Source: Candidatus Omnitrophota bacterium (GTDB taxonomy: Bacteria; Omnitrophota; Gorgyraeia; Zapsychrales; Zapsychraceae). Taken from it: a stretch of 64,000 nt of DNA. Below the pieces are notes generated by a model. The model ran no database searches. It was not told the DNA's origin and worked only from the letters and a program-made list of their open reading frames with translations. Each line of letters begins with the position of its first letter. Positions within the stretch are counted from its first letter, which is position 1. The DNA lies in assembly GCA_015233195.1 (NCBI GenBank), contig JADFYE010000002.1:90184-154183 (forward strand), in the 5' to 3' direction. Shown one piece after another: positions 28,905 to 52,192 of the stretch. The position numbers and the translations under genes are program-made.

Positions 28905-31900
28905 TTACGCCGGAATTCTTACTTTAAAAACTGTACCTTTACCTAAAGAACTTTGAACCGTAATATCCCCTCCATGTTTCCTAATAATATTATATACAAT
29001 AGATAAACCAAGCCCTGTACCTGCTCCAACATCTTTCGTTGTAAAAAAAGGATCAAACACCCGCGGAATGTCGCTCTCCTGAATGCCTGACCCTGTATCA
29101 GCGACTTCAATAAAAACTGATCCGGATTTTAAATATGTACTAAGCGTGATCCTGCCTTGCTCCCCTATAGCTTCAGCTGCATTAACCAACAAATTTATAA
29201 AAACTTGTTCTAATTGACGAGGATAACACAAAACCTGCGGAAGCTCAGCATATTCTTTCACAATTTTAATTTTTTCTTTCAATATATTTTGAATGATGCT
29301 CAAAGCACGGTTGATCGCCTCATGTATATCAGCTTTTTGTTTTTCTTCTTTATCTTCCCTTACAAAAGTTCTTAGATCAAACACAATCCGTTTAACCCGC
29401 TCTGCTCCTTCATTAGTCTCAGTAATGAGCCGACGAAAATCAGAAAGAATATTTCCCATGTTTTGAGTATTCTGAAAATCTTTAATACCCAGCAAGGTAT
29501 CTTTAACTTGCGAAGAAAGTTCCCCCGGAAGAATAGATTCAAGATTATCATAAAGCTGTAGAACTTTTTCAATAGTTTCAGCATATCTATCAAGCACTGA
29601 AATATTCGCGATAATATAAGCCATGGGATTATTTATCTCGTGAGCAACACCTGCAGCCAGCCGACCCAGAGATGCCATCTTCTCTGCCTGCAACAACTGA
29701 TTGTTCACCTCTACTAATTCTTTTGTTCTCTTTTTAACCTCTTGTTCCAAATGCTGACGATATTGATTCAATTCATCTTCCGCTTGTTTACGCGCAGTAA
29801 TGTCATTAAACATTGTCAAATAACATTGCTCGTTATTAATAGTAATCACTTCGCCTGAAAAAAGACCAGTGTGAATTTTTCCATCTTTTGCCCGAATCAA
29901 ACACTCGAACGCATCAATAGAACCCTTTTCAGAAATAACTTTATATGCCTTGACCCTATCATTAATATCAACCCAAAGTTTTAAATCAAGTGACGTCTTA
30001 CCAATAACCTCTTCGTGCGAATATCCCATTAATTTAGTGAACGCATTATTTACATCAATGTATGCGCCATTCTTTACCTTTGATAAAGCCATTGATACTG
30101 GGTTCATTTGAAATGCCATAGCAAATTTCTCTTCGCTCTTACGCAAAGCTTCTTCCACCCTCTTACTCTCAGTAATATCCCGTATAACCCCGAATATTTG
30201 TTGCGGCGAACCATCTGGTGATCTTTTATAAATACATTCATGACTTTCCAGCCAACGCCACTCACCATTTTTATGTTTCATGCGATAGCTCAAATTAATT
30301 ATTTCATAATCCTTAGCTTGGCTATATTTCGGAATAGTATTTTTGTTATAAAAAACAAAATCTTCCGGATGCATCAAATTCTGAATAACAGTACTTCCAA
30401 ATTTATGTAATTCTTCAACCGTATAGCCAAGCACTCTCTGAATACCCTCATTAACATAAACATTTATTTTTTCTACTAGGTCATAAATAAAAACAATATC
30501 GGGATTTAAATTTACCAAAGATTCAATAAACTTCGTTCTCTCATATAATTTTTCTTCAACCACCTTGCGTTCTGTTATATCGTGTATAATACCAATCACG
30601 CCTATTATGTTTCCGTCAACATCCTTCTGTGGACCATAGGTAGAAGAAAACCAACCTAGTTTATTAGTTTGTTGTACATGATAACGCAACTGCACAGCTA
30701 CTACAGTTTCTCCTTTTAAAGCCCGCTCCAGCAATATATCTACACCCTGTTCGCGCAAATGAGGAAATAACTCTAAAGCATTCTTCCCTATAACCTTCTC
30801 CGCAGCCATACCAGTCAAACGCTCCATAGCAAAATTCCAAACTATATATTTTAATTGCCGGTCGTATACAATAATCCCTTCAGCAGCGTTTGATATAATC
30901 TGATCGGAAAATTGTTGTGCCTCTATTAATGATATAGTCTGTTTTTTAATTTCGTAATTTAGACGCTCTCTATGCGAAAGCACATACGAAAGATAAAGCG
31001 CGAGTAGTATAGTGAGGAACGCTCCTATAGGAAGAAAAAGCCAAGCAGCCAACAAATAATTTTTTTCAACATAAGCGGTGCTCGGAAAAAAATCAATTTC
31101 CCATTCACGTCCGGCAAAAGTAATTATCCGCACCGCATGCGGTGCAGGCGGAAATAGTGGCACATTTAAAAGTTTTAATTTTTCTTTACTTACAGGATGT
31201 TTATAAATCAACCGCTTTTCACCTGAAGCTGAAAGATCTATCAACTCAAAACCAACCTCATGCAAAGGCGAATGACCAAACGCTGCAGATAAGAACATAT
31301 CTATGCGGAAAATTGCCATTGAAAACCCTTGTATAGCAGCACGACGTTCTTCAACTGTTTTAGTCGGCAACCCTTTACCATAAACCGGAACTAAAATTGC
31401 AAAACCTGGTTTTAAAGCTGCTCCCACCAGTTTGATCTGTTCACTAGCAGTAGGCTCTCCAGTATCCAAAGCGCGTTGCAAAGCCGCTCTTCGTTCGGGG
31501 GTAGAACCAATATCAAATCCTAGCGCCTGTTGTGTCTCATTATCTATAGGCTCTACATAAAATATCGGAAAATACTTATCCCTATTTCCTACAGGAATTT
31601 TTTTATTTTTATCATCCCTCTCAAAAAACATAAAGTTAGAATTTATTTCTTTACGACCCTCGTCTTCAAAACGGTCCCGCTCTTTTGCTGGTACAACCGG
31701 CACCCATTCCAGCGCCCTAAGTTCACTACGATAAACAAAAAAAGAATTCATTAAAGCCGCAAACTCTTTCCGGTCAACATTACCGAACGTCTCAAAATAC
31801 CGGCTTAGAGACTTAGTAACCAGAATAGCCTCTTCCAAATCATGTTTTACCAACTCGACCAGGAGATTTATATCACTATCAAAACGGGTACGGAAAGATT

Positions 31901-32033
31901 TTTCTTCGGCGCGTTGAATTTGCCAAAATACCATACTGGTAATAAAAAAACCAATAAGAATAATAATCATCACGACCGTAAAAATTCGACCGGATTGCAA
32001 TTTTTGCAGTAAAATTCTAGCTTTTTCTACCAT
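28905..32033 (-). CDS. Sensor histidine kinase: CHASE-like periplasmic domain, three to four PAS domains, HisKA and HATPase_c
   Basis: Two TM helices flank a ~280-aa extracytoplasmic domain. PAS repeats are recognisable (...DITERK, DITESK, DITARK ends). The H-box is GVAHEINNPM, the N-box LLVNAAEA, G1 DTGSGI and G2 GTGLGLS. There is no receiver domain and no adjacent response regulator. Confidence 0.9.
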   Translation of the reverse strand: MVEKARILLQKLQSGRIFTVVMIIILIGFFITSMVFWQIQRAEEKSFRTRFDSDINLLVELVKHDLEEAILVTKSLSRYFETFGNVDRKEFAALMNSFFVYRSELRALEWVPVVPAKERDRFEDEGRKEINSNFMFFERDDKNKKIPVGNRDKYFPIFYVEPIDNETQQALGFDIGSTPERRAALQRALDTGEPTASEQIKLVGAALKPGFAILVPVYGKGLPTKTVEERRAAIQGFSMAIFRIDMFLSAAFGHSPLHEVGFELIDLSASGEKRLIYKHPVSKEKLKLLNVPLFPPAPHAVRIITFAGREWEIDFFPSTAYVEKNYLLAAWLFLPIGAFLTILLALYLSYVLSHRERLNYEIKKQTISLIEAQQFSDQIISNAAEGIIVYDRQLKYIVWNFAMERLTGMAAEKVIGKNALELFPHLREQGVDILLERALKGETVVAVQLRYHVQQTNKLGWFSSTYGPQKDVDGNIIGVIGIIHDITERKVVEEKLYERTKFIESLVNLNPDIVFIYDLVEKINVYVNEGIQRVLGYTVEELHKFGSTVIQNLMHPEDFVFYNKNTIPKYSQAKDYEIINLSYRMKHKNGEWRWLESHECIYKRSPDGSPQQIFGVIRDITESKRVEEALRKSEEKFAMAFQMNPVSMALSKVKNGAYIDVNNAFTKLMGYSHEEVIGKTSLDLKLWVDINDRVKAYKVISEKGSIDAFECLIRAKDGKIHTGLFSGEVITINNEQCYLTMFNDITARKQAEDELNQYRQHLEQEVKKRTKELVEVNNQLLQAEKMASLGRLAAGVAHEINNPMAYIIANISVLDRYAETIEKVLQLYDNLESILPGELSSQVKDTLLGIKDFQNTQNMGNILSDFRRLITETNEGAERVKRIVFDLRTFVREDKEEKQKADIHEAINRALSIIQNILKEKIKIVKEYAELPQVLCYPRQLEQVFINLLVNAAEAIGEQGRITLSTYLKSGSVFIEVADTGSGIQESDIPRVFDPFFTTKDVGAGTGLGLSIVYNIIRKHGGDITVQSSLGKGTVFKVRIPA

Positions 32034-34711: not shown

Positions 34712-34736
34712 ATCTGAAATAAATTATAAATAAAAA

Positions 34737-34765
34737 AGCAGCCCATTTTTGAGCTGCTTTTTTTA
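34737..34765. terminator. Bidirectional rho-independent terminator between convergent genes
   Basis: Stem agcagc (34737-34742) pairs with gctgct (34753-34758). An A-run lies upstream and a T-run downstream. Confidence 0.7.
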
Positions 34766-34788: not shown

Positions 34789-35367
34789 TTATTTGCGTCT
34801 GCGAACTAAAACTAAACCGCTTAACCCGCTGCCCAACAATAACAAAGACATTGGTTCAGGCACCACTGATTGATTGCCCTCTCCGCCAATGATCTCCATC
34901 TCTGATAACCCTGCCCAGTGCGATCCACCAACAACTTCATATTTTGCATACCGCATATCAAGCCCATAGGTTCCAAACGATAATGTTCTGGTCCAATCAA
35001 CTTCATCCACAAATGTTCCGGAAGCGACCAAAGTCCAATCCGTATTATTTGTGCCTGTATAAAAATTATAATCATTCGTATAGCCAGCATACTGACCATC
35101 CGGAGGATACATTGTGGTAAGAACAATTTGATTTACATTGTAAACATTTTGTAAATCCACGGTCACCCAATATGGGTTAGCTTCCGTAGCATGACCATTG
35201 GCCACCCAAGTCGTATAAAGATCACCATCAATTGCATTCGATGCAGGGAAATATTCGCTGTTAGCTGTTGCGATAGCGCCTAAAGCCAAATTCGTAGCGC
35301 ATACCGGCGTAGTCCACAAAAGTGCTACTCCAAACATAAACACTAAACTTAAAATAAAATTCCGCAT
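34789..35367 (-). CDS. PEP-CTERM protein with discoidin (F5/8 type C)-like domain
   Basis: I prefer the start at 35367 (MRNFILSLVFMFGVALLWTTPVCA) because an AAGGAAG RBS precedes it. NLALGAIATANSEYFPASNAIDGDLYTTWVA is typical of discoidin domains. The C-terminus is VVPEPMSLLLLGSGLSGLVLVRRRK. Confidence 0.8.
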   Translation of the reverse strand: MRNFILSLVFMFGVALLWTTPVCATNLALGAIATANSEYFPASNAIDGDLYTTWVANGHATEANPYWVTVDLQNVYNVNQIVLTTMYPPDGQYAGYTNDYNFYTGTNNTDWTLVASGTFVDEVDWTRTLSFGTYGLDMRYAKYEVVGGSHWAGLSEMEIIGGEGNQSVVPEPMSLLLLGSGLSGLVLVRRRK

Positions 35368-35516
35368 AAACTTCCTTTCGCTAAACTTGGTAATTATTCT
35401 TAGTTGATGACAATGCCTTGTCATTAAATTTATAAAAGTGAAGAGAACTATACGATATGATATAGCATATGTCAATAGGACATACCTACCCAGAGTAGGA
35501 CAAGATTAGAATCAGT

Positions 35517-38500
35517 TTACTGTTCAAAAATTTGCAGAAAATTTGTAACTGGCATAATTTGGAGGATTGTAAAAGTAACACCACTCACTTGCGCGGCATC
35601 AATTTCTATTCCATTAAAATTAAATTTAAAATCTTCTCCTCCATTTTTAACCTGCATACTCATCTGCGCAGGGTCTAAGTCAATCCCGCCTGTACTTTGC
35701 TTTTCCTCGTTAAGATACTTTTCGGGTGATTGTAAAATATCGCTTAATTTCTCTATGATTTTCTGTCTTTGACTATCTTTAATAATATTGCGATAAAATA
35801 GGTCATTACGTGAAAGCTCCTCTAATAAAATCCTCAATTCCTGCGGATACGTACGTAAAACATCCATAACCTTTGCCCATATAGCTTGCCTATACTCAGG
35901 AGGAGAAGAAACATTCTTTCCTTCTAAAAAAACAATTGTTTCAAGATTATGTAAAACATAATGTCGTATTTTTTTCTTCATAACCGGCATTTCTTTACCG
36001 CTTAATAAATGGTCCGTATAAACTTCCAGCCGACTAGCCATATTCCAAGGCTGGGCATCATCCATTGCCTTTAGAACACTAGCATTATGCTCATTAAATT
36101 CTACTGGTTTTTCAAAAGCCAATTTATCTTCCCATAAATCCAAACCCATGGCTCTGGTCCTCTGTTCCAACGCTTTGAATGAATCATCTAAGAAACTTAT
36201 TTCTCTCTCAATTAAGAAAGGTTTATGTTGCTTAAATAAAAATGACATCGTCCCGGCTCCTCTGATTTTAGGAGCAAAATCAGAAGATACCAAAAGCTGT
36301 TGAAATAATTCCTGAGGCATATTTTTCCAAAAACTAATAATGATAACTTTTTGATCCTTTTCAATAATCCACGAGTTTTCTCCCAGTACCAGTACGCCGG
36401 GTAACTTATACGGATCAGCCGGGAACCTATTTGAATAACCCCTTTGTCCTGCTCCTAAGTCAAACAGCACTACCGGTCCAGAGACATTAGCATTGATTAA
36501 ATCCTGCACATAATTTTCTAATCCTTTGAGACTATGTAAATACGCAACCGCCCATTTCATGTGTTCAAGACCCTCTCTACGGACACCTAATTTATCCAAC
36601 AACTCTCGTCTCTCCTCTAAAGTGCGTATTGCCTTTACTTGGGCATTTCCATTAACACCAACACCTAATGTCCCTGGCATAAAACCAGTGGCAAAAAAAT
36701 CCTGCTGTAAATCGCCGAATGTCTTTCCAAAATTTAAATTATCAAAATCACTGATATTAATAGTTCTTTCTACAGCGGCTTTGGGTTTCCATAAAGTTGG
36801 CAAATACTTAATTAACACATAATCATTTCTTTGAGCCATACCATCTTCAATAGTAACGAGCTCTTGTGGTTTATTAATGATTGTAGCAGTAAAATTCTCA
36901 TCCTTAACTTTATAAGCCAATATACGAATACCTTGAACCGTCTGAGCTACAAGACTCCCATTAATAGCAGGTTCAATTAACGGCAACCAACGATTTGTGA
37001 TTTTATCCTCTGTAATTAAAAAAATTGGATTAGAAGGATACCTTTCCTTTAACTTTAATAATAATCCCCAAGCAATTACGGTATCCCCACGACCATCCCT
37101 CAGGTAAGGCAGTGAAAAATAAATAGGCATATTCGGATTGCGCACTTGCTCAGATATCTTTTCTTGCCAACCCATTTCCTGTTCCCAAAGGTCTAAAGAT
37201 TCCACCGACCAATCATCACTCACACAGGTCTTCGCAAATGGAACCCAATCCTTTTGAAAATACATAGCCAGCAGATCATAAACTCCGCGCAAATCCCTTA
37301 AATAACATGTAGCCAGAGAATTCTGCACAGAAACAACTATTTGCTGGGCTTCCAAAGACTGCGGTTCCATACCTGCCCATATTTTAAAACTAATCGCCAA
37401 ATGCAAAGCCACCACTTCCATGCGCAAATAGGCATTTATATCTAAAGCCCTAGGTTCAAATAAAGGTAATGCCTGACGCAAAGCTTCTGTATCAACAAGC
37501 CCATCCCTTATCCAACCCATTGCAGCCTGCGCCAGAGCTTTAAACCAGTAACTTTGATAAAACCACCGATCTTGATCTTTTTTCAGAAAATCAAACCGTT
37601 TAGCTAAAATTAAAAATAATTCATTGCGTTTGGAAGGATCCAACTCTTTAAACCATTGCCTAGATGCAACAAACATTTTTTGTTCTTCTCCTGAATTCCC
37701 AAAAAAAGTTGATTGAGTCCATTGCTCCGCAAAATGTTTATAATATTCATCCGGATTATTTAATTGGGCATTGTCTGTCTTTACCGCCCTATATGCTGCC
37801 ATCGCGTCCTCGCCATTGTCAGAATCAAATTTTGACCAAAATTTAAGAACAATTTTTGTTCCTTTTCCTGGAAATGATTCTATATCAAATTGATCTGCTG
37901 TCGCTCTTGCCAATGGTAATCCGACTCCAGTACCGCCAGCCGCAGTTGCCCCTTCCGGCTCTGCTGACAGTCCATGAGGTTCAGATAAATCGCCTCGGAA
38001 TGCCGCCTCAATGTCCTGTATACCTTTGCCATGATCCATGATAAATATTTCTACCCCCATTCGACCAACATCAAAAATGGGGCGGCTTAAAATAACCCCA
38101 TAGTCTGCATAAAAATATGTGTTTAAAATCAATTCAATAATGGCTGATTTAATATTATCTTTCCGGTTGTTAGAGATCAAATGACTTATCGGTCTTAAAA
38201 TACGTGAAGCGACAACAGAAGCTTCAAGTCCACCGACTTCATGCGGCCAATACCCCTTAAATGCAGTTCCTTTGATCAGAGCAACTTGTTCTTCCGAAGG
38301 AGGAGATATCCGTGTATATCGTTTTAATTGTTCCACTAAAGCCAAACTTTTTTCAACATCACCCATTTGAAGATAGGACCATAACTCTTTAATAACGCCA
38401 TCGGAAAACATCGCTCCATCTGCTGACGGATTAGATATACTCCTCATCATATCCATATCACCAACAACCTCTATCAATGGTTTGGATAGTGCAGCCATGT

Positions 38501-39590
38501 CTTTAGGCGCAATCCTCGCTAAATCCAGAAATTCTATTACTGGAGTAATATTTCCAACTACCCCGCCGGAAAAATATTTCCTTGGCAAAAATTGATTTGT
38601 AAGCGGATCTGGTTCTTCTTTTATGTAGTTGTATACGCCTTTTTTAAAAGCTTGGATGTATTGTTGATAAATTTGTTCCGGGTCTCCACTTAAATTTTTT
38701 GTTGATAACAAATTACCGATTTTATTTTGGTTAGAATAAACTTTATTAAAAATACTGTCTTTAATTTTCTTTTTGTACCACGTAGCTAAAATTAATGAAT
38801 AAAATACCTGACGTAATTGCGTAAAATTTTTACCTTCATTAACTTCTTTTTCCAGCGCGGGAATTATGATCTGCTTTAAAATTTCTTGATTGATCCCCTC
38901 ACTTTTTACCTTTAACCTTTCACCTTTTTTCTGTGATGCCGCATAATCTATCTCTGTCATCACCTTCAAATGATTTTCCAATACAAAGGCTGTTCCCCCG
39001 CTTTCATAAACCACCGCCTTCTCGGGAACTATCCAAACTTTATTAAATGTATCTACGGGAATATCTGTCGTTCCATATTTGGCTTGAGCCTGAGCATAAA
39101 CTTTTTGCCAAAATTCTTTGCCTAATTGGCTTTCAGGATAAATTAAACTTGCGGTAATTTGTTTTAACAAATAATCTTGCGCCAATAAATCGCGGCCCAT
39201 TTCAGTTTTACCAAATGCTTGCGGTACAATGCGGTCTTTTTCATAAGGAGAAAGATTGACCCAAAGGTCTTTTTCAGGAATAGTTAAAGAAGCAAGGAAA
39301 TATTTGATCAAACGATTGGCTTCTTGTCTAAATTCTTCTTGTGACATTTCAGCACCGTGATCGCGAAGCGATTTTACGGTGTCACCAGTATCTACAAAAA
39401 AATTAAACTTGAACGGATTTTGCGGGTCTAATTTAATGCCTTTTAGCACTGCAGGATTGAAAGCAGGACTTAGCGATACCATTTGCCCAGGTGCAGGCAG
39501 ACTAACTTCCTGAGCATAAATTGGATTTGACCCCAGAATGCTAGTGCAGACAAAACACAAAAGAATAAATAGAGAAAGTATCTTTTTCAT
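35517..39590 (-). CDS. Large secreted modular protein, paralog B: family N-module, GHKL ATPase-like domain, ~700-aa unknown region and 'GGID' C-terminal tail
   Basis: Signal peptide is MKKILSLFILLCFVCTSILGSNPIYAQ. The N-module is shared with paralogs A and C. The GHKL-type boxes are ELILNTYFYA (N box), MDHGKGI (G1) and GGTGVGLPLA (G2). The C-terminus is GGIDLDPAQMSMQV... Confidence 0.85.
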   Translation of the reverse strand: MKKILSLFILLCFVCTSILGSNPIYAQEVSLPAPGQMVSLSPAFNPAVLKGIKLDPQNPFKFNFFVDTGDTVKSLRDHGAEMSQEEFRQEANRLIKYFLASLTIPEKDLWVNLSPYEKDRIVPQAFGKTEMGRDLLAQDYLLKQITASLIYPESQLGKEFWQKVYAQAQAKYGTTDIPVDTFNKVWIVPEKAVVYESGGTAFVLENHLKVMTEIDYAASQKKGERLKVKSEGINQEILKQIIIPALEKEVNEGKNFTQLRQVFYSLILATWYKKKIKDSIFNKVYSNQNKIGNLLSTKNLSGDPEQIYQQYIQAFKKGVYNYIKEEPDPLTNQFLPRKYFSGGVVGNITPVIEFLDLARIAPKDMAALSKPLIEVVGDMDMMRSISNPSADGAMFSDGVIKELWSYLQMGDVEKSLALVEQLKRYTRISPPSEEQVALIKGTAFKGYWPHEVGGLEASVVASRILRPISHLISNNRKDNIKSAIIELILNTYFYADYGVILSRPIFDVGRMGVEIFIMDHGKGIQDIEAAFRGDLSEPHGLSAEPEGATAAGGTGVGLPLARATADQFDIESFPGKGTKIVLKFWSKFDSDNGEDAMAAYRAVKTDNAQLNNPDEYYKHFAEQWTQSTFFGNSGEEQKMFVASRQWFKELDPSKRNELFLILAKRFDFLKKDQDRWFYQSYWFKALAQAAMGWIRDGLVDTEALRQALPLFEPRALDINAYLRMEVVALHLAISFKIWAGMEPQSLEAQQIVVSVQNSLATCYLRDLRGVYDLLAMYFQKDWVPFAKTCVSDDWSVESLDLWEQEMGWQEKISEQVRNPNMPIYFSLPYLRDGRGDTVIAWGLLLKLKERYPSNPIFLITEDKITNRWLPLIEPAINGSLVAQTVQGIRILAYKVKDENFTATIINKPQELVTIEDGMAQRNDYVLIKYLPTLWKPKAAVERTINISDFDNLNFGKTFGDLQQDFFATGFMPGTLGVGVNGNAQVKAIRTLEERRELLDKLGVRREGLEHMKWAVAYLHSLKGLENYVQDLINANVSGPVVLFDLGAGQRGYSNRFPADPYKLPGVLVLGENSWIIEKDQKVIIISFWKNMPQELFQQLLVSSDFAPKIRGAGTMSFLFKQHKPFLIEREISFLDDSFKALEQRTRAMGLDLWEDKLAFEKPVEFNEHNASVLKAMDDAQPWNMASRLEVYTDHLLSGKEMPVMKKKIRHYVLHNLETIVFLEGKNVSSPPEYRQAIWAKVMDVLRTYPQELRILLEELSRNDLFYRNIIKDSQRQKIIEKLSDILQSPEKYLNEEKQSTGGIDLDPAQMSMQVKNGGEDFKFNFNGIEIDAAQVSGVTFTILQIMPVTNFLQIFEQ

Positions 39591-40395: not shown

Positions 40396-41526
40396 CTATT
40401 TCAATGTATAACTCGTGCTCCGTCCACCTGCGGCGTCTTTTCTGAGAATCCCTTTTTCCATAAGATCAAGAATATCTCTCAACGCCGTGTCTTGGGAGCA
40501 TTTTGTAATCTTTGCCCATTTAGTAGACGTGAGTTTACCCTCAAATCCATCAAACAATTTATTGACCATCATTTTCTGCCGTTCGTTGATCGCCCCGGAT
40601 GAATGCTTTTCCCAAAATTGTGCTTTTTTAAACACACCTGCTAATGTGCTTTCCGTTGATACAAGAGCCCGGTCGAGACAAGTCAAGAACCACTCAAGCC
40701 AAGTCGTAATATCAACGCTGGCACCTTTCTGCGTCTTCTCAAGCACATCATAATAAACACTTCGTTCCTTACGGATCTGGACAGACATGCTGTAAAAACG
40801 TTGCGCACTACCATCGGTCCGCGCCAATTGCATATCCGTGATCGCTCGTGCGATGCGCCCATTCCCATCCTCAAAAGGATGGATTGTTACAAACCATAAA
40901 TGCGCAATCGCCGCCTTTAAAACTGGATCAAAACCCTTCGAATCACTTGTGGTGAGCGAAGTCGAACCATTAAACCATGATAGATAACTCTTCATTTCTT
41001 GATTCAAACGATCTGCGCTAGGAGCTTCAAAATGGACACGTTCCCGCCCAACGGGTCCAGAAACGACTTGCATCGGACCATCTTTATCATCACGCCATAC
41101 ACCAATTTTTATTTTTCGCATTCCACTGCGTCCCCCAGGGAACATCGCGGCATGCCAACCGAATAAGCGGTCTTTTGTGAGTGGTTTTTTAAAATTTTGC
41201 GTAGCGTCAAGCATCATCTCAACCACCCCTTCCACATGACGGTCAGAACCAACAAGTCCAGCAATGTCCATCCCGAGTCTTCGCGCAATAGATGAACGAA
41301 CCTGACCAGGATCAAGCTTCTCACCTTCAATCTCGCTGCTTTTCAACACATCCAACGTAAGCGTCTGCAAGACCGCTTCCATGCGTAATGAAAAGCCTAA
41401 AGATTCCATCCGACCCATGAGTCGCCCTTGACGATTTCGTACTGTTCCAAGCTGCGCCGCGATCTTTTCGTGACTCCATGTAAATTGAGGCCAATTTTTA
41501 AGTTGATATATATATTTCATACTCAT
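40396..41526 (-). CDS. Fic-family protein (AMPylase-type) with N-terminal DUF4172-like region and C-terminal wHTH
   Basis: The canonical Fic motif is HPFEDGNGRIARA. The N-terminal block is LKNWPQFTW.... Confidence 0.9.
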   Translation of the reverse strand: MSMKYIYQLKNWPQFTWSHEKIAAQLGTVRNRQGRLMGRMESLGFSLRMEAVLQTLTLDVLKSSEIEGEKLDPGQVRSSIARRLGMDIAGLVGSDRHVEGVVEMMLDATQNFKKPLTKDRLFGWHAAMFPGGRSGMRKIKIGVWRDDKDGPMQVVSGPVGRERVHFEAPSADRLNQEMKSYLSWFNGSTSLTTSDSKGFDPVLKAAIAHLWFVTIHPFEDGNGRIARAITDMQLARTDGSAQRFYSMSVQIRKERSVYYDVLEKTQKGASVDITTWLEWFLTCLDRALVSTESTLAGVFKKAQFWEKHSSGAINERQKMMVNKLFDGFEGKLTSTKWAKITKCSQDTALRDILDLMEKGILRKDAAGGRSTSYTLK

Positions 41527-41972: not shown

Positions 41973-42003
41973 AAAAAAGGCCACCTAAAAGGTGACCTTT
42001 TTT
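41973..42003 (-). terminator. Probable ancestral tRNA-fMet terminator, now next to the partial tRNA copy (attL side)
   Basis: Stem aggccacc (41978-41985) pairs with ggtgacct (41991-41998) with one mismatch. On the minus strand it is followed by a T-run (A-run 41973-41978). It lies directly 3' of the duplicated tRNA 3' segment. Confidence 0.6.
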
Positions 42004-42006
42004 AAT

Positions 42007-42062
42007 TTGGTTGCGGGGACACGATTTGAACGTGTGACCCCCAGGTTATGAGCCTGGTGAGC
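42007..42062 (-). repeat. attL: 55-56-bp duplicate of the 3' part of tRNA-fMet
   Basis: tggttgcggggacacgatttgaacgtgtgacccccaggttatgagcctggtgagc is identical to 53572-53626. The two copies diverge immediately afterwards (ccca... versus tacc...). Confidence 0.9.
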
Positions 42063-42135
42063 CCACCCACAACTTATTGATAAATATAAACTTATGAAAA
42101 TTAAAAATCAAATGTGACGGATTTGTGACAATCAC

Positions 42136-42465
42136 CTATTCAGCCAATTTACAGCATGCTTCACTAAAACTTATAATGTCCTTTTCAAGAGCAATATCTT
42201 TTTCTAAATTAAAACAATTGCAAATATGTTCGCCTACATCATGCAAATAACAAATGACTTCCTGTAGAATTAAAAAAGTATATTTTTTAAAAATATTTGC
42301 GTCGTTAATATTTACCGTAAAATGAGTCATGTGAGAAAAATTACATAAAAACGCATAGTCACTTTTATATTTTTCAAGCAACCCAACATCTTCGGCGCGT
42401 TTTTCTACAAAAACACCGCCTAATTTATGTTTCATAGCACTAATGTTGGCTGTTCGGTCGTTCAA
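42136..42465 (-). CDS. Hypothetical protein, downstream partner of the DUF4238-like/SEC-C gene
   Basis: A 109-aa ORF starting 19 nt after the stop of the 823-aa gene, on the same strand. No motif recognised. Confidence 0.5.
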   Translation of the reverse strand: MNDRTANISAMKHKLGGVFVEKRAEDVGLLEKYKSDYAFLCNFSHMTHFTVNINDANIFKKYTFLILQEVICYLHDVGEHICNCFNLEKDIALEKDIISFSEACCKLAE

Positions 42466-42484
42466 TGATCAACGACAATTAAAA

Positions 42485-44956
42485 TTACTGATTAGAGAAA
42501 GATTCTATATATAAAGAAAGCGGCAAAGATTTTAAATATTTTTCGTGTCCAGCGTGTGCCAATAACAAGCGATAAACTGTGCTAGCGCTATGACCTGATG
42601 GAGCAATCTTGGCATTTAGCCTATACTTTTTCTGAATTACTTTAAAAGTCTCTGGGCAAACTTCATTTTTCCTTTTAATAAACTTTTCAATTGATGCACT
42701 CATATTTTTTCTGGCAAAATTCATTTCCTGTATTAAATTATCAATTTGTGATTTATTTGTTGGCGTCTCCTTTTGAACAGTGCACCAAATGTGTTTTAGC
42801 GCAGTCTTAATATGCTGTAACTCTCCTTCTTTTAATGTTAATAAAAGATCCTTCTGATCAGGAAACTCAACAAAATCAATTTCCAAATTCGTCATATATT
42901 TTTCAATAGCTTGCCATTCAGAATGTCCATCTCCATAATAATTATTAACAGATTCACAAATTTCAAACCATCTGTGTTGATGATAAGTTAGTATAAACGA
43001 ACCTGTTGATTGAGCTAAAAACAAACCCAATTCAAGATTGGGACTTAAATGCGCAATGTGCATCTGACAAAATTCTTCATCACTTTCATGAAGCTGTAAT
43101 GAAGCCAACGGATCTTGCTCTCTATTTATCTTAATTTCCACAAGAGTTTTTTCAAGTTGCTCATCGTTGATTTCAGGCATATGATGCTTAATAAATAATC
43201 TTATACGCTCATCAGGCAAATTAAACATACCTCTTATCACGTCTTCCATAGCCAACTTTTTCATTGACAGCATTACCTTCTCATCAATTTTCATTGTTTT
43301 ACACCGGTTTTGTGACGCTTCCATAATTTGTTGTCTTAATTCAAAGTCAAAATTCATTGGATCAGGAATCATATTGACCTTGCCAATTTCTATTAATGGC
43401 ATAAATGAAATAAAAAATAAAATGTTCTTTAATGTTTCTTGTCTAAACGTGGAAGGATTATTTATTGGATTGTATTCTTTAGGAAGAACATTTGCATTAG
43501 CAAACGGATTAATAATTAATATCTCATCTGCATATAAAGAAAATGCCGCAACATCCTTATAAGCAACACGCGGATCCAATAAACCTGAATAAAGCGCACG
43601 TGATATTTTTTTATCTGGCTTTGGCAATAAAGCCATTAAATCTGTTTCAGTTGGCCAAAGACTCGCGAAAACTTTATGAATTTCTATTATTTTATCATCA
43701 CTAAACTCTCGTCGAATTTGTGTCCAATCCTTTTTATCTAACTCAAGAATTTTTGTAAGAATCCGAAAAAACATTAAATTCCGTTCTCGGATACTTAATT
43801 CTGTCCATGACGACCTTTCCTCCATTGTTTTATCATAGCAACATCTCTTATATTTTTTAGCGCTTCCGCAAGGACAAGGGTCATTTACACCGATCTTGCC
43901 TTCTTTAGGTTCTTTTTTAAAAAAATTTGCTTCTGGGTGAGTTCTGCCATACTCATCGCTATAAAAATATGTGCCATCTTTATTTTGGCCATAAACTTCC
44001 CCTCCATAATTATAAAGCTTGTCTTTAGGTGGCAACAACACCTTACCTATCTCCGTCCAAGAGCTTTGAATAAATTTCTCAGGGTAAAGCCATTCTTTAT
44101 TTTCAGCAGCTAAAAATTGTTTTGATCGTAGCTTAATCATAAGATTTATTTTGGCAACTTCGTTGTCTTGTAACTCCCTTTTACAAATTATATTATCCAT
44201 TCTCCCTAAAGTATTTCGGAACGACTTCGCGTTAGCTCTATATATTTTAGGATCAGATAAATCAGGGTTACGGGCATAATCTAAGTTAGTAAGAATCAAA
44301 CAACGGGCACTATCTAGAGGGAAAACTGTTTGGGTTGCTTTCATTTCGATTCGAGGATCGTTAGGATATATACATTCTTCACTATTAGGAGGACAAGCAT
44401 AATTATAAGTTGTAATGGGATGATCAGAAACTATAAATTTTATTTTTGATTTTCTTGCATACACTATCTCTTTAACAGACTCAAACCAAAGTGTGCAATG
44501 CAATTGCCTAATTTTCTGCATTTCAAATAACAACTGATTATGTGTCAAATTTGGATACTTTGACTTCAGCCAAGCAAGCCCTTTCGGAGTACGAATTTTC
44601 TGTATATCAATGTATTCAAAAAACTTCTCAAAATTATTATGTAAATTTTCAAATTCCTGTTCAGCCATTGCACTCACAGCATTAAGACCTACATTATCAA
44701 TTTTCCCAAAAAGATAACGTTCAATGTCATCATTTAAAAATCCGTAATAATGTGTCGTATATAAATCTTTTTGGCAGAAACATTGACTAGGGCTAAAAGG
44801 ATAATTGATTGCTTTATCTTGTTTCTTGTGCCCATTGGGTAATTCTATTAGTTGTGGGCATAGATTTAAGTAATAAAAAGTGCTTTTTGAAGAAGATAAA
44901 AATCTCTTCTGATACCACTTTGGAACATAATGATTTCTACGTGTAATATCAATCAT
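42485..44956 (-). CDS. DUF4238-like N-terminal domain, SEC-C zinc motif and ~440-aa uncharacterised C-terminal region
   Basis: The N-terminus RRNHYVPKWYQKRFL and the block FIVSDHPITTY match my recollection of the DUF4238 signature. The SEC-C motif DPCPCGSAKKYKRCC is encoded at 43835-43885. Confidence 0.7.
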   Translation of the reverse strand: MIDITRRNHYVPKWYQKRFLSSSKSTFYYLNLCPQLIELPNGHKKQDKAINYPFSPSQCFCQKDLYTTHYYGFLNDDIERYLFGKIDNVGLNAVSAMAEQEFENLHNNFEKFFEYIDIQKIRTPKGLAWLKSKYPNLTHNQLLFEMQKIRQLHCTLWFESVKEIVYARKSKIKFIVSDHPITTYNYACPPNSEECIYPNDPRIEMKATQTVFPLDSARCLILTNLDYARNPDLSDPKIYRANAKSFRNTLGRMDNIICKRELQDNEVAKINLMIKLRSKQFLAAENKEWLYPEKFIQSSWTEIGKVLLPPKDKLYNYGGEVYGQNKDGTYFYSDEYGRTHPEANFFKKEPKEGKIGVNDPCPCGSAKKYKRCCYDKTMEERSSWTELSIRERNLMFFRILTKILELDKKDWTQIRREFSDDKIIEIHKVFASLWPTETDLMALLPKPDKKISRALYSGLLDPRVAYKDVAAFSLYADEILIINPFANANVLPKEYNPINNPSTFRQETLKNILFFISFMPLIEIGKVNMIPDPMNFDFELRQQIMEASQNRCKTMKIDEKVMLSMKKLAMEDVIRGMFNLPDERIRLFIKHHMPEINDEQLEKTLVEIKINREQDPLASLQLHESDEEFCQMHIAHLSPNLELGLFLAQSTGSFILTYHQHRWFEICESVNNYYGDGHSEWQAIEKYMTNLEIDFVEFPDQKDLLLTLKEGELQHIKTALKHIWCTVQKETPTNKSQIDNLIQEMNFARKNMSASIEKFIKRKNEVCPETFKVIQKKYRLNAKIAPSGHSASTVYRLLLAHAGHEKYLKSLPLSLYIESFSNQ

Positions 44957-45117
44957 ATTATAAGTAATTATTTACTAAATTCGTTATATATGCAATTATG
45001 ATTTTCAACTAAAGAAAATATTATTTAGCCATTGAATAAACGAACATTTAATCAACCCCTTAGAATAAGCAATTTCCCTGTAAAAAAACTTGTACCCTTT
45101 ATTCAACCCTTACATCT

Positions 45118-45772
45118 TTAGACACCCGCAAGAACTATCCACTTTAAGAATAACATCACGTGCTTTAAGAAATACCTCAGAAAGAAAACATCAAACTCCG
45201 GCATATACATATCCGCGTTTTCGTTTATACACTTAGTATAAAATTCGTAATTCTCATAACATTCTTGAGGTAGACCACCAAAATCAATAATTTCATGTAA
45301 TAGCTCATTGAGATCTTCTCGTCGAATATTTCAACATTATATGGCGAAATAGATGTGATAATATTATGGTTAATTACTCGCTTATTTTTAAAATAAAAAA
45401 TTATAAATACTTCGACATAAAGATTTTGGAAAGTTGAAAAAACTTCGGCAAGCTCTTGAGATGAGGTTATAGCCAATCCCTTCGGATTAAAGCTTAACCC
45501 TTTTTCAACGAGAAACTTTTTTGCGACGTCCGATAGGGAACCCTCGGTTCCACTATCCCCTCGGATATTTTCAATGTGCTCGTCTGCTTTTTGCTGATAT
45601 TCTTTTTCTTTGATTTCATACGCGACTTCCGTTTCCTTAACAGTATCGTGAATATCTAATTTTTTTTCTTCAATAAAGCGTTAAACGATTTCGTGTCTCG
45701 TAAGAACGGAGCTAATGGGCTGATAAGGTAAGAAACTTTTGATTTTTTCTTCTGCTTTTTTATGACTTTCAT
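45118..45772 (-). pseudogene. Disrupted ORF (at least two frameshifts, one in an A8 run)
   Basis: After a GGGAGA RBS, the ATG at 45772 gives MKVIKKQKKKSKVSYLISPL...ALLKKKN*, which stops inside gaagaaaaaaaattag. The next frame continues LDIHDTVKETEVAYEIKEKEYQQ...FKNKRVINHNIITS. A further shift gives EDLNELLHEIIDFGGLPQECYENYEF... Confidence 0.45.
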
Positions 45773-45923
45773 CTATATTCTCCCAAAAAACTTTTTGTTA
45801 TTCTGACAATTATATTATCATGGCTTTCTGTCTTGTCAATAGCCTCCCTACCGACGCTGTCTGATATTTATTCACACCCTTGTTTTCGGTTTTCTTCAGG
45901 GGTAAAGTTCTTTGAAAAGCTAA

Positions 45924-46070
45924 CTAAGTTTTCTTGTCTTGTGTGTTAGGGTTTTTCCCAGTCTTCTTCGCCGAAAGTATAGCCTTCTTCATTGCTCGGT
46001 TCATCCTGATCCGCTGTTCGTATAATCTCTGCTCTTCTGGATTCGGGTATTTTTGATTGATCGCTGTCAT
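45924..46070 (-). CDS. 48-aa truncated paralog of the 126-aa protein at 47867..48247
   Basis: MTAINQKYPNPEEQRLYEQRIRMNRAMKKAILSAKKTGKNPNTQDKKT aligns with MEEPRFQNPKQQKLYDLQIKLNRAMNKAILSAKMTGHKI. The upstream leader is also duplicated. It is below the ORF-track size cut-off. Confidence 0.5.
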   Translation of the reverse strand: MTAINQKYPNPEEQRLYEQRIRMNRAMKKAILSAKKTGKNPNTQDKKT

Positions 46071-46165
46071 TTTTTATTTCCTCCACTACCGGTCTTACTT
46101 ATTTATGCGACTCTATTAATAACTTTACTATTTAATGCTGTCTGGGAGTTAGCTTTATTCCTCAT
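45958..46165. repeat. Diverged ~200-bp duplication, copy 1 (copy 2 at ~48141..48340)
   Basis: ccagtcttcttcgccgaaagtatagccttcttcattgctcggttca aligns with ccagtcatcttcgctgaaagtatagccttgttcattgctcggttca. Similarity continues through the start codon and a leader containing ctattaata. Boundaries are approximate. Confidence 0.7.
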
Positions 46166-46218
46166 GGTTTCCCTCAGCTTAGCTAATTCCTTTGCAATGG
46201 AACGCATACGCATATGAT

Positions 46219-46350
46219 CCTGATCTAGGATATTATTGGGATATACCAATGTCATATCAATTCGATGCAAATGCCGTACCCGAGCCGACCACGATATTGC
46301 TATTTAGCGCGGGATTAGGTTTATTATTTAGAAAAAAGCCCTGTTCATAA
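46219..46350 (+). pseudogene. C-terminal remnant of a PEP-CTERM protein inside the island
   Basis: The plus-strand frame reads ...YYWDIPMSYQFDANAVPEPTTILLFSAGLGLLFRKKPCS*. That gives a PEP motif (from 46276), a TM helix and a basic tail. An in-frame stop just upstream leaves no N-terminal body. Confidence 0.6.
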
Positions 46351-46387
46351 GAACGAGGCTTCAACTTTTCTGCGCATGGTAGATAAG

Positions 46388-46606
46388 CTATTTAACTTCT
46401 TCGAATCTTCGCTCCCCGCATTTGGTGCAGGCAATTTTAATATGTGACCTACCGTATGCACTCAGCATTACAAACTTATGCCCGAATATCTCACACCTAA
46501 TTTTTATTAAGACCTCCGACCACTTCTTTCGAGATGATTTTAATGATACGCAGTTTTCTAATAAGTCCCGCGAACTCTTCCGAAGACATTTCATCTCTTG
46601 CCTCAT
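46388..46606 (-). CDS. Small zinc-ribbon-like protein
   Basis: 72 aa. Cysteine and histidine pairs occur in CEIFGHKF...CTKCGERRF. It lies directly downstream of the HExxH gene. Confidence 0.4.
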   Translation of the reverse strand: MRQEMKCLRKSSRDLLENCVSLKSSRKKWSEVLIKIRCEIFGHKFVMLSAYGRSHIKIACTKCGERRFEEVK

Positions 46607-46716
46607 CCAATATCTTTATTTTTGTTTCATTGTCTTGCGCCGACATAACGCCTTTTATTATAGGATCAAAAATTTTAAGATTATCTCCAGCACGTGCGCT
46701 ATTTGCCTTACCACCA

Positions 46717-47604
46717 CTAACGCTGATTCTCTAATTCAACATAACAGTCGGTATTATATTGAGCTATTCCGCGGCAATTACCACAAACGACATCTTGACA
46801 ACCTTTGTCCAATTTGATGCGTAATCTTTGAAAACAAAATGGGCATAAAACAACGGCACTCTCGAAATCCTTATCTTTTAATAGCTGACCTTTCCTATGC
46901 ATATAACTTACAACACCGTCGCGAAAACAGTCCCTTCCCTCCCCAAACAATAATTTCATTATTTCTTCATTTTTAATCGATTTGATTTGTGCATACAACG
47001 CCAAAGCATAACCCAATTCATCATTCGTTAAATAAGGCTTAATATTCTTTTTACTTATCCTCTCCTCATTTCCAACAACTTCCGATTTAGTACAAGGGGT
47101 TAACCCATTCAATAAAAAAATTCCCATTCCCAGATAAATTGTCATTAAATCCGTATAACGTTCATTATCAATCCCGTTATAAATCTCCAAATTATTGTCT
47201 TTTAAAAAAACATGTGAAATTTCATGCGACAGGCAAGCAGCTATTTGTCGTTTATCTTCCATAAAAAAATTATCAATCTCTATAAAATAATCGGTCCCGT
47301 TTCTTTGGACTACTGCCGCGCTTGACAAATTTCCTGAAAACCCAACAATAACTTGCCGCATATTGATATTCAAATTAGCCGCAATCCGACGTGTTAATTC
47401 CATACTATAAATTACACCGTCACCAAAATCTATCCCTTCATCAGTAATGAATGACTGACGTCGCAAAATCGGATGTTTAATTTTACTAATACCATGAAAA
47501 TTTTCTTCTATCCATGACCTTTTTGCCGCGACGTTAAAATATATTTTCGTCTTTTTTTCTTTTTTTTTAAAACCATTAAACATATTGTTCCTTTGTAAGA
47601 TCAA
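46717..47604 (-). CDS. Putative HExxH zinc metallopeptidase with C-terminal zinc ribbon
   Basis: The HExxH motif is CLSHEISHVFL, in an ImmA/IrrE-like context. The C-terminal four-cysteine ribbon is CPFCFQRL...VVCGNCRG. The start may be the internal MFNGF at 47583. Confidence 0.55.
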   Translation of the reverse strand: MILQRNNMFNGFKKKEKKTKIYFNVAAKRSWIEENFHGISKIKHPILRRQSFITDEGIDFGDGVIYSMELTRRIAANLNINMRQVIVGFSGNLSSAAVVQRNGTDYFIEIDNFFMEDKRQIAACLSHEISHVFLKDNNLEIYNGIDNERYTDLMTIYLGMGIFLLNGLTPCTKSEVVGNEERISKKNIKPYLTNDELGYALALYAQIKSIKNEEIMKLLFGEGRDCFRDGVVSYMHRKGQLLKDKDFESAVVLCPFCFQRLRIKLDKGCQDVVCGNCRGIAQYNTDCYVELENQR

Positions 47605-47866
47605 AAACTAAATAAAGAACCATCTTTTAATCTGTTAGAGGGAATCCTGCAACCATCTACCATCTTTATCCCCATTCTTAAATTATAACTCTTTATGCTT
47701 ACGCCAAAAATCATCCTCATCATTAATCTCTAAAACCTTCTTACCATCAGAATCTAATAAGACTAAGTTCCTTTTCTTTAGATAAAACATTCACAACATC
47801 ACTATCCGAAACAAAAAATGGAAAGGCGATTAAAAATAATATAGTAAACAAATACTTTCTCCTGCC

Positions 47867-48247
47867 TTAACCCTCATCATTTAAACAAAAATCAGCCAAA
47901 ATTTCCCCAGTATTCTTATCAATAACCACACAATTTGATGAGCAAAGAGACATGTTACCAAGTATTTCCGGATATATAACACACCAAGCGGCTTTTCCCT
48001 CCCATCGTTTCGCTAAATTATCAAAACCATATATTCGCTGACGATTGAAATTTACCTCATCAACTGTATAAACAAATACCGCGTTTTTAAGCGCATGCCC
48101 TAAAGCTATTTCTCGCGCACGATCTTTTGTAATTTTATGTCCAGTCATCTTCGCTGAAAGTATAGCCTTGTTCATTGCTCGGTTCAGCTTGATTTGCAGA
48201 TCGTATAATTTCTGCTGCTTCGGGTTTTGAAACCTCGGTTCTTCCAT
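47867..48247 (-). CDS. Hypothetical 126-aa protein (full-length copy of the duplicated module)
   Basis: The ORF has an RBS-like GGGGGAAATAA upstream. Its N-terminus is paralogous to the 45924..46070 peptide. Confidence 0.5.
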   Translation of the reverse strand: MEEPRFQNPKQQKLYDLQIKLNRAMNKAILSAKMTGHKITKDRAREIALGHALKNAVFVYTVDEVNFNRQRIYGFDNLAKRWEGKAAWCVIYPEILGNMSLCSSNCVVIDKNTGEILADFCLNDEG

Positions 48248-48340
48248 TATTTATTTCCCCCGGTGATGGTCTTTTTTCCCTCCACCACGCTATTAATAGC
48301 TTAACTATTTCGCACTGTCCAATAGTTAAACTTTGGCTTC
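48141..48340. repeat. Diverged ~200-bp duplication, copy 2
   Basis: See copy 1 at 45958..46165. This copy covers the 5' coding end and the leader of the 126-aa gene. Confidence 0.7.
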
Positions 48341-48506
48341 TATCAGCATAGTTATTTACCTTTGTTTATTTCAACAATTATAATATAAATAAGCGACAAC
48401 GTGATGTCGTAAACATTCGAAATTCATCATCGCACAAGACCTACCTTTGACCTTAACTCCTTTGCGGTTTGGGTATCTCCAAAAATATCAGCAACCTGCG
48501 CCTGAC

Positions 48507-49046
48507 TTAACATTCCGTGTAATCATATATTGCTAATGCCTGGCTTGTCTCTAAATTAATAATTAGGCATTTTTGATTAAAATGAATAGAAAAAAAAGAA
48601 CTTTTAGGTGAAACCACAACGAGCGTTGTCTCTTTTTTTAAAATATTTTTTAAACGATCCATACTAACAACTTGATTATCGACTTTTCGAAAATCAAATT
48701 CCTCATTAGGTAAAATCCTTACCCATTCATCAAAATCAGTAAGTAGTTTATCTATTTCCCAAGCACTAATATGCGGTAACTTATTAATAATAAAATTTAT
48801 AGATTTAAGACTAATACTGCTTACAACGAGCGAGTATCCATAATAAAATAGAACAGAAACAACAAGTCCAGATAAAATAACTGCTACAAAAGCACCTATT
48901 GGTATAACTTTTACCCAATAATCTCCAAACTGAAACTCAATAAGTCGTGCTAAATAATCATATAGACTCAAACAAACGATCATGACTGAAAACCACAACA
49001 CCATACGAAAAATAAAACTAAAAAATTTTTTCATCAATTTATGCAT
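48507..49046 (-). CDS. Membrane protein (two N-terminal TM helices plus a soluble C-terminal domain)
   Basis: 179 aa. The hydrophobic segments are FSFIFRMVLWFSVMIVCLSLY and VIPIGAFVAVILSGLVVSVLFYY. Confidence 0.5.
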   Translation of the reverse strand: MHKLMKKFFSFIFRMVLWFSVMIVCLSLYDYLARLIEFQFGDYWVKVIPIGAFVAVILSGLVVSVLFYYGYSLVVSSISLKSINFIINKLPHISAWEIDKLLTDFDEWVRILPNEEFDFRKVDNQVVSMDRLKNILKKETTLVVVSPKSSFFSIHFNQKCLIINLETSQALAIYDYTEC

Positions 49047-49126
49047 AATATTCTCCTTAATTAAATAACTATATCACCCAAGCCGTTTGGTGTAAAGAAT
49101 GGCGCGCTTCCTTTATAATTCAAAAC

Positions 49127-49714: not shown

Positions 49715-49800
49715 TCCTATTGCTCCCTCAAAAGAAATTTATTGTACTATTATTCACACAAAAAAAGACCTTCAGGTTCTATACCTGATTTTAAAGAGTC

Positions 49801-50862: not shown

Positions 50863-50928
50863 AGCTATAATATACACCCAACAATCATTGGGTGTCAATA
50901 TTTATATACCTATTTATAATAGGGTGTT

Positions 50929-52187: not shown

Positions 52188-52192
52188 AAAAA

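Follow-up and report, generated by a model that had tools for sequence, protein, structure and literature searches.

Why would a protein that appears destined for export carry a domain that appears built to bind ATP? The question is raised by one gene, here called paralog B or the target gene, in a window of 64,000 nt of Candidatus Omnitrophota DNA (assembly GCA_015233195.1, contig JADFYE010000002.1, positions 90,184 to 154,183); by the window we mean this whole stretch. The gene occupies 35517..39590 on the minus strand as an uninterrupted open reading frame (ORF) of 1357 amino acids (aa) plus stop, and its product is 100% identical to HQL25_01500, a hypothetical protein from an NCBI metagenome-assembled genome (MAG) of a Candidatus Omnitrophica bacterium. 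An earlier note on this DNA had described a GHKL ATPase fold in a signal-peptide protein and had regarded its location as a puzzle, ATP not being expected outside the cytoplasm. The analysis presented here indicates that the GHKL domain is very probably one cassette of an exported modular family. The explanation that we favour overall, at a probability of roughly 0.4, takes the protein to be a modular carrier that is exported, with ATP-dependent cargo working in the cytoplasm of a different cell.

A GHKL domain of the SpoIIAB/RsbW type

The interval in which the earlier note had placed the fold, 37833..38228 on the minus strand, corresponds exactly to residues 455-586 of the target ORF, and the motifs quoted for it are present. 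All features of the target gene given below lie on the same strand. The GHKL core, delimited by homology to stand-alone SpoIIAB/RsbW/RsbT-like kinases, spans aa 459-587 (37830..38216). Its N box, ELILNTYFYA (aa 486-495, 38106..38135), contains invariant E486 and N490, the latter at the position of the Mg-ATP ligand. The G1 box, MDHGKGI (aa 518-524, 38019..38039), has invariant D519 and G523 and near-invariant G521, with K522 in place of the usual Pro. The G2 box, GGTGVGLPLA (aa 552-561, 37908..37937), has invariant G555 and G557 and near-invariant L558. The ATP-lid region (37935..37991) carries a 13-aa insertion, DLSEPHGLSAEPE, at aa 534-546, and the terminal strand pair, FPGKGTKIVLKFW (aa 573-585, 37836..37874), has conserved G575, G577, T578 and W585.

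Conservation was assessed in an alignment of 51 sequences, namely the target cassette and 50 small kinases. All eight invariant columns (E486, N490, G512, D519, G523, G555, G557 and G577) are kept by the target, as are nine of the ten near-invariant ones, the exception being the substitution of Pro by K522. The Asn at the Mg/ATP position and the G-box glycines G523, G555 and G557 are invariant across the whole alignment. The domain therefore looks intact, and ATP binding can be predicted from the retained N-box, G1 and G2 residues, whose positions contact Mg-ATP in GHKL proteins that have been characterised.

An exhaustive phmmer search with aa 380-625 against 1.84e9 representative proteins gave 366 matches at E<=1e-3, the best non-self match being at 6.3e-10. 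Nearly all of these are small proteins (median 156 aa among the 149 listed) which align to aa ~459-587, and the closest relatives of the core are stand-alone SpoIIAB/RsbW/RsbT-like serine kinases of 130-190 aa, less than 45% identical to it. With Pfam HATPase_c (gathering score 26.4) the protein as a whole scored 23.0 bits and the module taken by itself 27.0 bits, while HATPase_c_2 stayed at 26.4 bits, short of its gathering score of 27.4. The sole NCBIfam match was spIIAB (TIGR01925, anti-sigma F factor), at 29.7 bits against an equivalog cut-off of 135. For comparison, the genuine sensor kinase of the window (28905..32033) scores 91 bits with HATPase_c. Searching PDB sequences with the GHKL region as a single sequence gave only E ~0.4-1 and a profile was needed; that of the 51-sequence alignment matched SpoIIAB at 3e-17 and RsbW at 5e-7.

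The AF2 model of aa 429-605 has a mean pLDDT of 82.6 and a pTM of 0.77, with low confidence only at the lid insertion (aa 540-552). Foldseek comparison of this model with PDB placed SpoIIAB first (1L0O/1TID/1TIL/1TH8/1THN; E ~1e-7, TM 0.65-0.73 on the target), followed by a second tier of histidine-kinase CA domains and then pyruvate dehydrogenase kinases (PDKs). At E<=1e-3 the PDB gave 138 matches; the 50 that were listed are GHKL-fold (alpha/beta sandwich) structures without exception.

Overall, sequence, profile and predicted structure all back the fold proposed in the earlier note, including the profile searches by which that note had suggested it be judged. The choice of the SpoIIAB/RsbW type over the histidine-kinase type is likewise borne out, because the nearest sequences, the sole NCBIfam match and the top structural match agree on it. 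We therefore regard aa 459-587 as almost certainly a GHKL (Bergerat-fold) domain of the SpoIIAB/RsbW/RsbT serine-kinase/anti-sigma class. HisKA, STAS and PP2C domains were not found in the target protein with Pfam and NCBIfam, in agreement with the statement that no HisKA or partner-switching domain is visible in it. The stretch 'YWPHEVGG' (aa ~446-453) was considered as a degenerate H box and rejected: it gives no HisKA match and is modelled as beta1 of a SpoIIAB-like fold. Genes for sigma factors, STAS proteins or PP2C were likewise not found in the window, where the scan covered ORFs of at least 150 aa and could have missed a STAS gene of ~110 aa. The domain was not filed as an anti-sigma factor because it departs from that class in curated score, stand-alone size, partner genes and cytoplasmic location. 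To judge from its sequence, it adds a divergent new member to the GHKL superfamily, one that probably works most like SpoIIAB/RsbW.

These data bear on one alternative directly, namely that domain shuffling within a rapidly evolving family picked up the GHKL domain, which has since lost its function. It is a singleton, since no orthologue of the cassette was present in the 1.84e9 representatives, among 119 listed family members or in 82 related loci; its Pfam scores are borderline, and both the lid insertion and the Pro to Lys change in G1 would fit a decaying domain. Against this, the eight invariant and nine of ten near-invariant positions are intact, the fold is predicted with confidence and the ORF is uninterrupted over 1357 codons. 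We consider a non-functional relic improbable.

A family with constant ends and variable cargo

When the target protein was used as a query, at least 4785 clusters were obtained, nearly all of which match only its first 25-31%; the Pfam domains in the remainder vary widely. The members are 750-2350 aa long and share a fixed layout of a Sec signal peptide, a conserved N-module of ~320 aa, variable cargo and a conserved C-tail of ~57 aa. In the target, a predicted Sec signal peptide (aa 1-26, 39513..39590) is followed by the family-defining N-module (aa 27-346, 38553..39512), which runs from 'LPAPGQMV..LSPAF..LKGIK' through 'PRKYFSGG'. Linker 1 (aa 347-394, 38409..38552) ends in a first border motif, DGAM (aa 391-394, 38409..38420). 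The GHKL cassette (aa 395-593, 199 residues, 37812..38408) consists of an N-terminal extension of ~65 aa and the SpoIIAB-like core; the second border motif, EDAM (aa 594-597, 37800..37811), a variant of D-x-A-M, follows the GHKL fold by 9 aa. Next comes cargo module 3 (aa 599-1295, 35706..37796), to which no function is assigned, and the conserved C-terminal tail (aa 1299-1357, 35520..35696) reads GGIDLDPAQMSMQVKNGGEDFKFNFNG...VTNFLQIF. The target thus carries two cargo cassettes, GHKL and module 3.

Module 3 gave no match in PDB and Pfam searches, and a suspected likeness of aa ~825-865 to the N-termini of GT9 heptosyltransferases was not confirmed and was dropped. The only homologue known for it, 39% identical over ~600 aa, is in the family member P0002. 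As this protein shares the head of the target and lacks the GHKL cassette, the cassette is separable.

The N-module follows the pattern 'LPAPGQMV...WVNLSPYEKDRI...TFNKVWIVP...PRKYFSGG', with ~70 invariant columns in 65 sequences; that of the target is 46-71% identical to those of other members. It is modelled at pLDDT 70-90 as helices with two beta hairpins. The C-tail follows 'GGIDLNPAQMSMQVKK.G.DFKF.FNG..IDAAQVTGATFTIRTMTPVTNL..LGL' (also 'GGIDLxPA...F.I....PV.NL...LGL') and is present in 110 of 120 members; a database search with the C-tail only returned seven short fragments. Neither N-module nor C-tail had a match in Pfam (even at E<=10), NCBIfam, PDB (profile and Foldseek) or BFVD. Targeted term searches of papers on giant Omnitrophota proteins returned no passage that mentions the N-module, the C-tail or D-x-A-M, and the head/tail family is apparently undescribed.

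When each species was represented by a single genome, scanning gave at least 589 loci, of which the best 80 were used for the analyses of loci and neighbours. Each of the 80 belongs either to a MAG with the label Omnitrophota/Omnitrophica or to a TPA bin that carries the label 'uncultured Planctomycetales'. There are many copies per MAG, single MAGs contributing 6-9 of these top 80 loci. The genes are dispersed, and no neighbour recurs in more than six of the 80. A phage origin was rejected, only three loci being found in 2.9 million viral contigs. The family is specific to Omnitrophota and massively expanded, with three copies in the window. Besides the target these are paralog A (59194..62649, minus strand), in which signal peptide, N-module (47% identity) and C-tail recur around a different cargo, and paralog C (1..1695, minus strand), which has an N-module 52% identical to that of the target and runs off the window edge after 565 visible aa with no stop. 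Identities of 47-52% imply that the duplications are old. The cargo of paralog A includes an HD-like 'H..HD' stretch with no Pfam match. Another ORF, 20110..24129 (1339 aa), was considered for paralog A and rejected, as it encodes an autotransporter (minus strand) with a long, repetitive passenger rich in Gly, Asn and Thr.

The cargo of the family includes HATPase_c, receiver, methyltransferase, glycosyltransferase and HAD domains and nucleotide kinases; under the sources' own names there are also SAM (S-adenosylmethionine)-dependent methyltransferases, guanylate kinase, MutS ATPase, nucleotidyltransferase and sugar-phosphate enzymes. Among the best 120 members, at least six besides the target have canonical HATPase_c domains, with scores of 56-164 bits and in no case with a Pfam HisKA; receivers are also present. 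Because ATP-dependent cargo recurs in this way, the topology puzzle belongs to the family and not to the target gene. The puzzle seen in the earlier note is therefore real, and it reaches beyond the one protein for which it was described.

The cargo cassettes are delimited by the family-specific D-x-A-M motif. It occurs 393 times in 120 members against 15.4 times expected from composition (25-fold), with at least one copy in 116 of them, and not once in 14,954 aa of other window ORFs. Expressed as a rate, this is 1.5-2.35 per 1000 aa in the family against a background of 0.11 in 708 neighbour ORFs of related loci. The N-module is followed by a copy at a distance of no more than 80 residues (median 33) in 96 of 112 members, and in 46 of 112 one lies within 25 residues before the C-tail; the median spacing, 271 aa, is that of a domain. 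For six of the nine strongly scoring HATPase_c cargo matches that were examined (in P0014, P0031, P0036, P0042, P0048 and P0076) the motif is found 0-10 aa past the C-terminal edge of the domain, and in the model of P0007 it lies in a linker of low pLDDT. DGAM (391-394) and EDAM (594-597) bracket the GHKL cassette of the target in the same manner. Paralog A has DHAM after its N-module (61471..61482, minus strand), and paralog C has DSAM and DNAM (682..693 and 595..606, minus strand). The motif may be a processing or docking site.

The fact that the border motifs end in Met and precede cargo modules raises another possibility: that the cassette is freed inside the producing cell, by internal initiation at this Met or by cleavage before export, and that only the N-module is exported. 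The start codon of the target has no obvious Shine-Dalgarno sequence, and initiation independent of such a sequence may be normal here. However, the Asp and Ala before the Met are kept as amino acids, a conservation for which an untranslated leader would give no reason. At the D-x-A-M sites we found neither a Shine-Dalgarno sequence nor DNA-level conservation beyond the codons. Moreover, the in-frame terminal C-tail in 110 of 120 members argues for synthesis and use of the entire chain in one piece. Release within the producer thus appears very unlikely.

Signal peptide and topology

The target begins with MKKILSLFILLCFVCTSILGSNPIYA followed by QEV. In terms of signal-peptide structure (MKK, a 17-aa hydrophobic core and SNPIYA, then QE), this is a basic n-region, a hydrophobic core of 17 residues, helix breakers and a V-x-A site, and it is the sole hydrophobic segment of the protein. 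There is no lipobox and no twin-arginine motif, and lipoprotein and Tat signals were accordingly rejected. The assessment was made by rules (charge, core and -3/-1 site) and was extended to 109 family members with complete N-termini. The n-region is net positive in 101 of the 109, the net charge over 30 residues past the hydrophobic core is zero or negative in 103, and a (-3,-1) site falls within eight residues before the conserved mature N-terminus in 93. Ala at -1 and Pro at -4 are at least 90% conserved across the family. The signal peptide of the target also closely resembles that of the autotransporter at 20110..24129, which must use Sec.

By these family-wide rules the protein has a signal peptide, as the earlier note had assumed, and it is of the Sec type and of cleavable-looking shape. 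That note had also named an uncleaved anchor with a cytoplasmic bulk as the outcome that would overturn it; the same rules point instead to an N-in orientation and a cleavable-looking signal.

It may still be argued that the family is not exported at all, the N-terminal segment being an uncleaved tether or non-functional, the bulk of the protein cytoplasmic and the GHKL domain part of an ordinary partner-switching or signalling kinase fusion. This would be the simplest way to supply the cargo with ATP, SAM and nucleoside diphosphate (NDP)-sugars, and topology was judged here by rules. The authors of a study of giant Omnitrophota proteins admit that topology predictions for such proteins may err (bioRxiv 10.1101/2023.11.21.568195), and another preprint favours a cytoplasmic placement for giants that have only transmembrane (TM) segments (bioRxiv 10.64898/2026.06.07.730766). 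Nevertheless, the charge distribution described above is of the N-in/C-out kind, the helix-breaking Pro at -4, the Ala at -1 and the (-3,-1) site are widely conserved, and the signal is like that of a Sec-dependent autotransporter. The failure to find STAS, PP2C or sigma-factor genes among the window ORFs of at least 150 aa also speaks against a partner-switching role. We consider retention in the cytoplasm unlikely.

Where the cassette may act

If the signal peptide is functional, it would take the whole mature protein across the inner membrane via Sec. The invariant head and tail could then serve as handles for a conserved machine of the envelope or of export. Recognition of invariant ends is known from TPS (two-partner secretion) domains, the C-terminal domains (CTDs) of the type IX secretion system (T9SS) and the ends of MARTX toxins, though these are analogies only. 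D-x-A-M sites would be processing or hinge points in flexible linkers. As the cargo is dominated by ATP-, SAM- and NDP-sugar-dependent domains, the most likely place for the cassettes to act would be the cytoplasm of a prey or host cell to which these bacteria attach, although we put this forward tentatively. In that cell the GHKL cassette would bind ATP and either phosphorylate Ser/Thr on a target or sequester a target. SpoIIAB and RsbW act on STAS proteins and sigma factors, and phosphorylation of a STAS-type protein or sequestering of a regulator is speculation by analogy with these two.

What is proposed about the organisms is compatible with such a scheme. Omnitrophota, which are nanobacteria, have been proposed to live as epibiotic predators or parasites (PMC10066038), and dead prey cells have been seen to contain RNA of one such predator (PMC13153191), which makes transfer of macromolecules at least plausible. 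A wider proposal, that the family is an undescribed Omnitrophota delivery or display platform in which an N-module of novel fold and the C-tail carry Sec-exported polyproteins, cut or hinged at D-x-A-M, which reach the prey cytoplasm and rewire its signalling, is possible but rather doubtful.

Export and action need not coincide in this way. The protein could cross the inner membrane and stay in the periplasm or surface 'coat' of its producer, with the GHKL domain working without cytoplasmic ATP, whether by anti-sigma-like sequestering, as a scaffold, or by sensing or using nucleotides that escape from prey cells on lysis. A signal peptide with no further TM segment would place the protein outside the inner membrane, and no injection system was identified in the 80 loci or in the window. 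The target gene also adjoins a gene for a PEP-CTERM surface protein (34789..35475), with which it may be co-transcribed, no terminator-like site having been found between them. SpoIIAB-type proteins are known to work by stoichiometric binding as well, and glycolytic domains predicted to be extracellular have been read as extracellular processing enzymes in the giant-protein preprint (bioRxiv 10.1101/2023.11.21.568195). It is hard to explain by a nucleotide-independent role, however, that all invariant N-box, G1 and G2 residues were kept despite identities below 45%, and the family repeatedly carries other cofactor-dependent enzymes. Moreover, we know of no ATP pool in the bacterial periplasm. 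A role confined to the coat of the producer therefore seems unlikely to us, if less so than retention in the cytoplasm.

Several observations count against the favoured explanation, that of an exported carrier with cargo acting in another cell. Transporters, proteases and immunity-like partners were not found linked to the family in the 80 loci or in the window. The part of the N-module and C-tail as handles is read from their pattern of conservation, nothing known having matched them; the signal peptide was likewise judged by rules, and cleavage at D-x-A-M is putative. The cargo repertoire (methyltransferases, glycosyltransferases, receivers, HEAT/TPR) is unlike that of classical toxins. As to the GHKL cassette, it has no close orthologue, the target alone scoring below 1e-10 in the 1.84e9 representatives, and for this reason purifying selection on it is not measurable. 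The 13-aa lid insertion and the Pro to Lys change in G1 could alter the handling of nucleotides.

What is at stake is an ordinary piece of biochemistry in an extraordinary location. Should the signal peptide be functional, ATP-, SAM- and nucleotide-sugar-dependent domains are exported in thousands of Omnitrophota proteins. In that case either these enzymes act in another cell or the current picture of what lies outside the inner membrane of these nanobacteria is wrong.

Other features of the window

The gene immediately downstream of the target, 34789..35475 on the minus strand, encodes a PEP-CTERM protein with an F5/8 type C lectin-like domain and is followed by a terminator-like hairpin at 34763..34732. 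A second PEP-CTERM protein is encoded at 15038..15595 (minus strand). Two genes upstream of the target lies a Fic/DUF4172 gene (40396..41526, minus strand), in the 2-kb bin with the highest GC content of the window (0.44). A small gene with a PilZ domain (1801..2142, minus strand) is directly upstream of paralog C; pilZ genes adjoin the giant genes of Omnitrophota according to a 2023 preprint.

A probable integrated element extends over ~42000..53650, with a GC content of ~0.33, below that of its flanks. It contains a tRNA-Met gene (53572..53648), a tyrosine integrase gene (49801..50898) and a gene for a DUF4238 and SEC-C protein (42485..44956), all on the minus strand. An FtsH-like protein of 859 aa, with two AAA modules and an M41 peptidase domain, is encoded at 55466..58045 on the plus strand. 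With a GC skew that is negative almost throughout and all but a few genes on the minus strand, the window lies on one replichore with a strong strand bias.

Comparison with known systems

Compared with SpoIIAB, RsbW and RsbT (HATPase_c_2; TIGR01925; 1L0O, 1TID, 1TH8, 6M36), the target domain has the same Bergerat fold with its strands and helices in identical order. Common to both are the E and N of the N box, DxGxG in G1, the G2 glycines and a terminal 'ES.PG.GT.v...KW' strand pair. However, SpoIIAB and RsbW are stand-alone cytoplasmic proteins of ~135-160 aa, whereas the target cassette is contained in a signal-peptide protein of 1357 aa. It further differs from them in the 13-aa lid insertion, in the N-terminal extension of ~65 aa and in a score far under the equivalog cut-off, and partner STAS, sigma and PP2C were found neither in the protein nor in the window ORFs of at least 150 aa. 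The histidine-kinase CA domain (HATPase_c) belongs to the same superfamily and shares the ATP-binding motifs; its Pfam score is marginal here, and its structures were second-tier matches. Unlike histidine kinases, the target has no HisKA/DHp and no phospho-acceptor His, and the segment upstream of its core is modelled as beta1-alpha1 of the SpoIIAB type.

Cargo of the T9SS (PMC11285876 and general knowledge) likewise combines a Sec signal with a conserved C-terminal element on otherwise unrelated proteins. At ~57 aa the C-tail of the head/tail family is shorter than a T9SS CTD, and none of the CTD models in Pfam and NCBIfam matches it. A conserved N-module is lacking in T9SS cargo, and the T9SS is a system of Bacteroidota. 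MARTX toxins, as generally known, follow the same logic of invariant ends, swappable enzyme cassettes and, between these, short linker sites. In sequence and domains they are unrelated to the head/tail proteins; they leave the cell by type I secretion, have no Sec signal and process themselves. RTX repeats, a cysteine-protease domain and a Por-type CTD gave no Pfam match in the target, even at E<=10 on isolated pieces. A platform of the kind outlined above would be functionally analogous to MARTX toxins and evolutionarily unrelated to them.

The closest parallel is with the giant proteins of Omnitrophota themselves ('Archaeovorins'), for which the paradox of cytoplasmic enzymes predicted outside the cell is already known. 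According to the giant-protein preprint, these carry HATPase_c, methyltransferase, HAD, PPDK and glycolytic domains behind signal peptides, and its authors, unsure of the localisation calls, propose proteolytic processing into several products (bioRxiv 10.1101/2023.11.21.568195). A 'metabolic cluster' protein of 147 kaa (thousand amino acids) has since been re-read, in a later preprint, as a signal peptide plus TM helices (bioRxiv 10.64898/2026.06.07.730766), and histidine-kinase relay domains are noted in gigantic Omnitrophota proteins in a further paper (eLife PMC12419801). The Archaeovorins and the head/tail family share the phylum, the same topology puzzle and a repertoire of HATPase_c, methyltransferase, HAD, HEAT/TPR, PPDK_N and glycosyltransferase domains behind signal peptides. 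The head/tail proteins are 0.75-2.4 kaa long against 10-147 kaa and, unlike the Archaeovorins, have no TM helices, SecA or C39 domains but do have a defined head, tail and D-x-A-M borders. Their genes are dispersed and not beside type II secretion system (T2SS) or pilus loci, unlike those of Archaeovorins. The target itself, with 1357 aa, one hydrophobic segment and no Pfam matches to SecA or C39, falls outside the Archaeovorin type. A family of this middle size is far more tractable than giants of 10-150 kaa, since mutation, tagging and proteome searches can all be directed at its invariant head and tail and its four-residue border motif. It thereby brings the ways in which Omnitrophota attack or exploit other cells within reach of direct tests.

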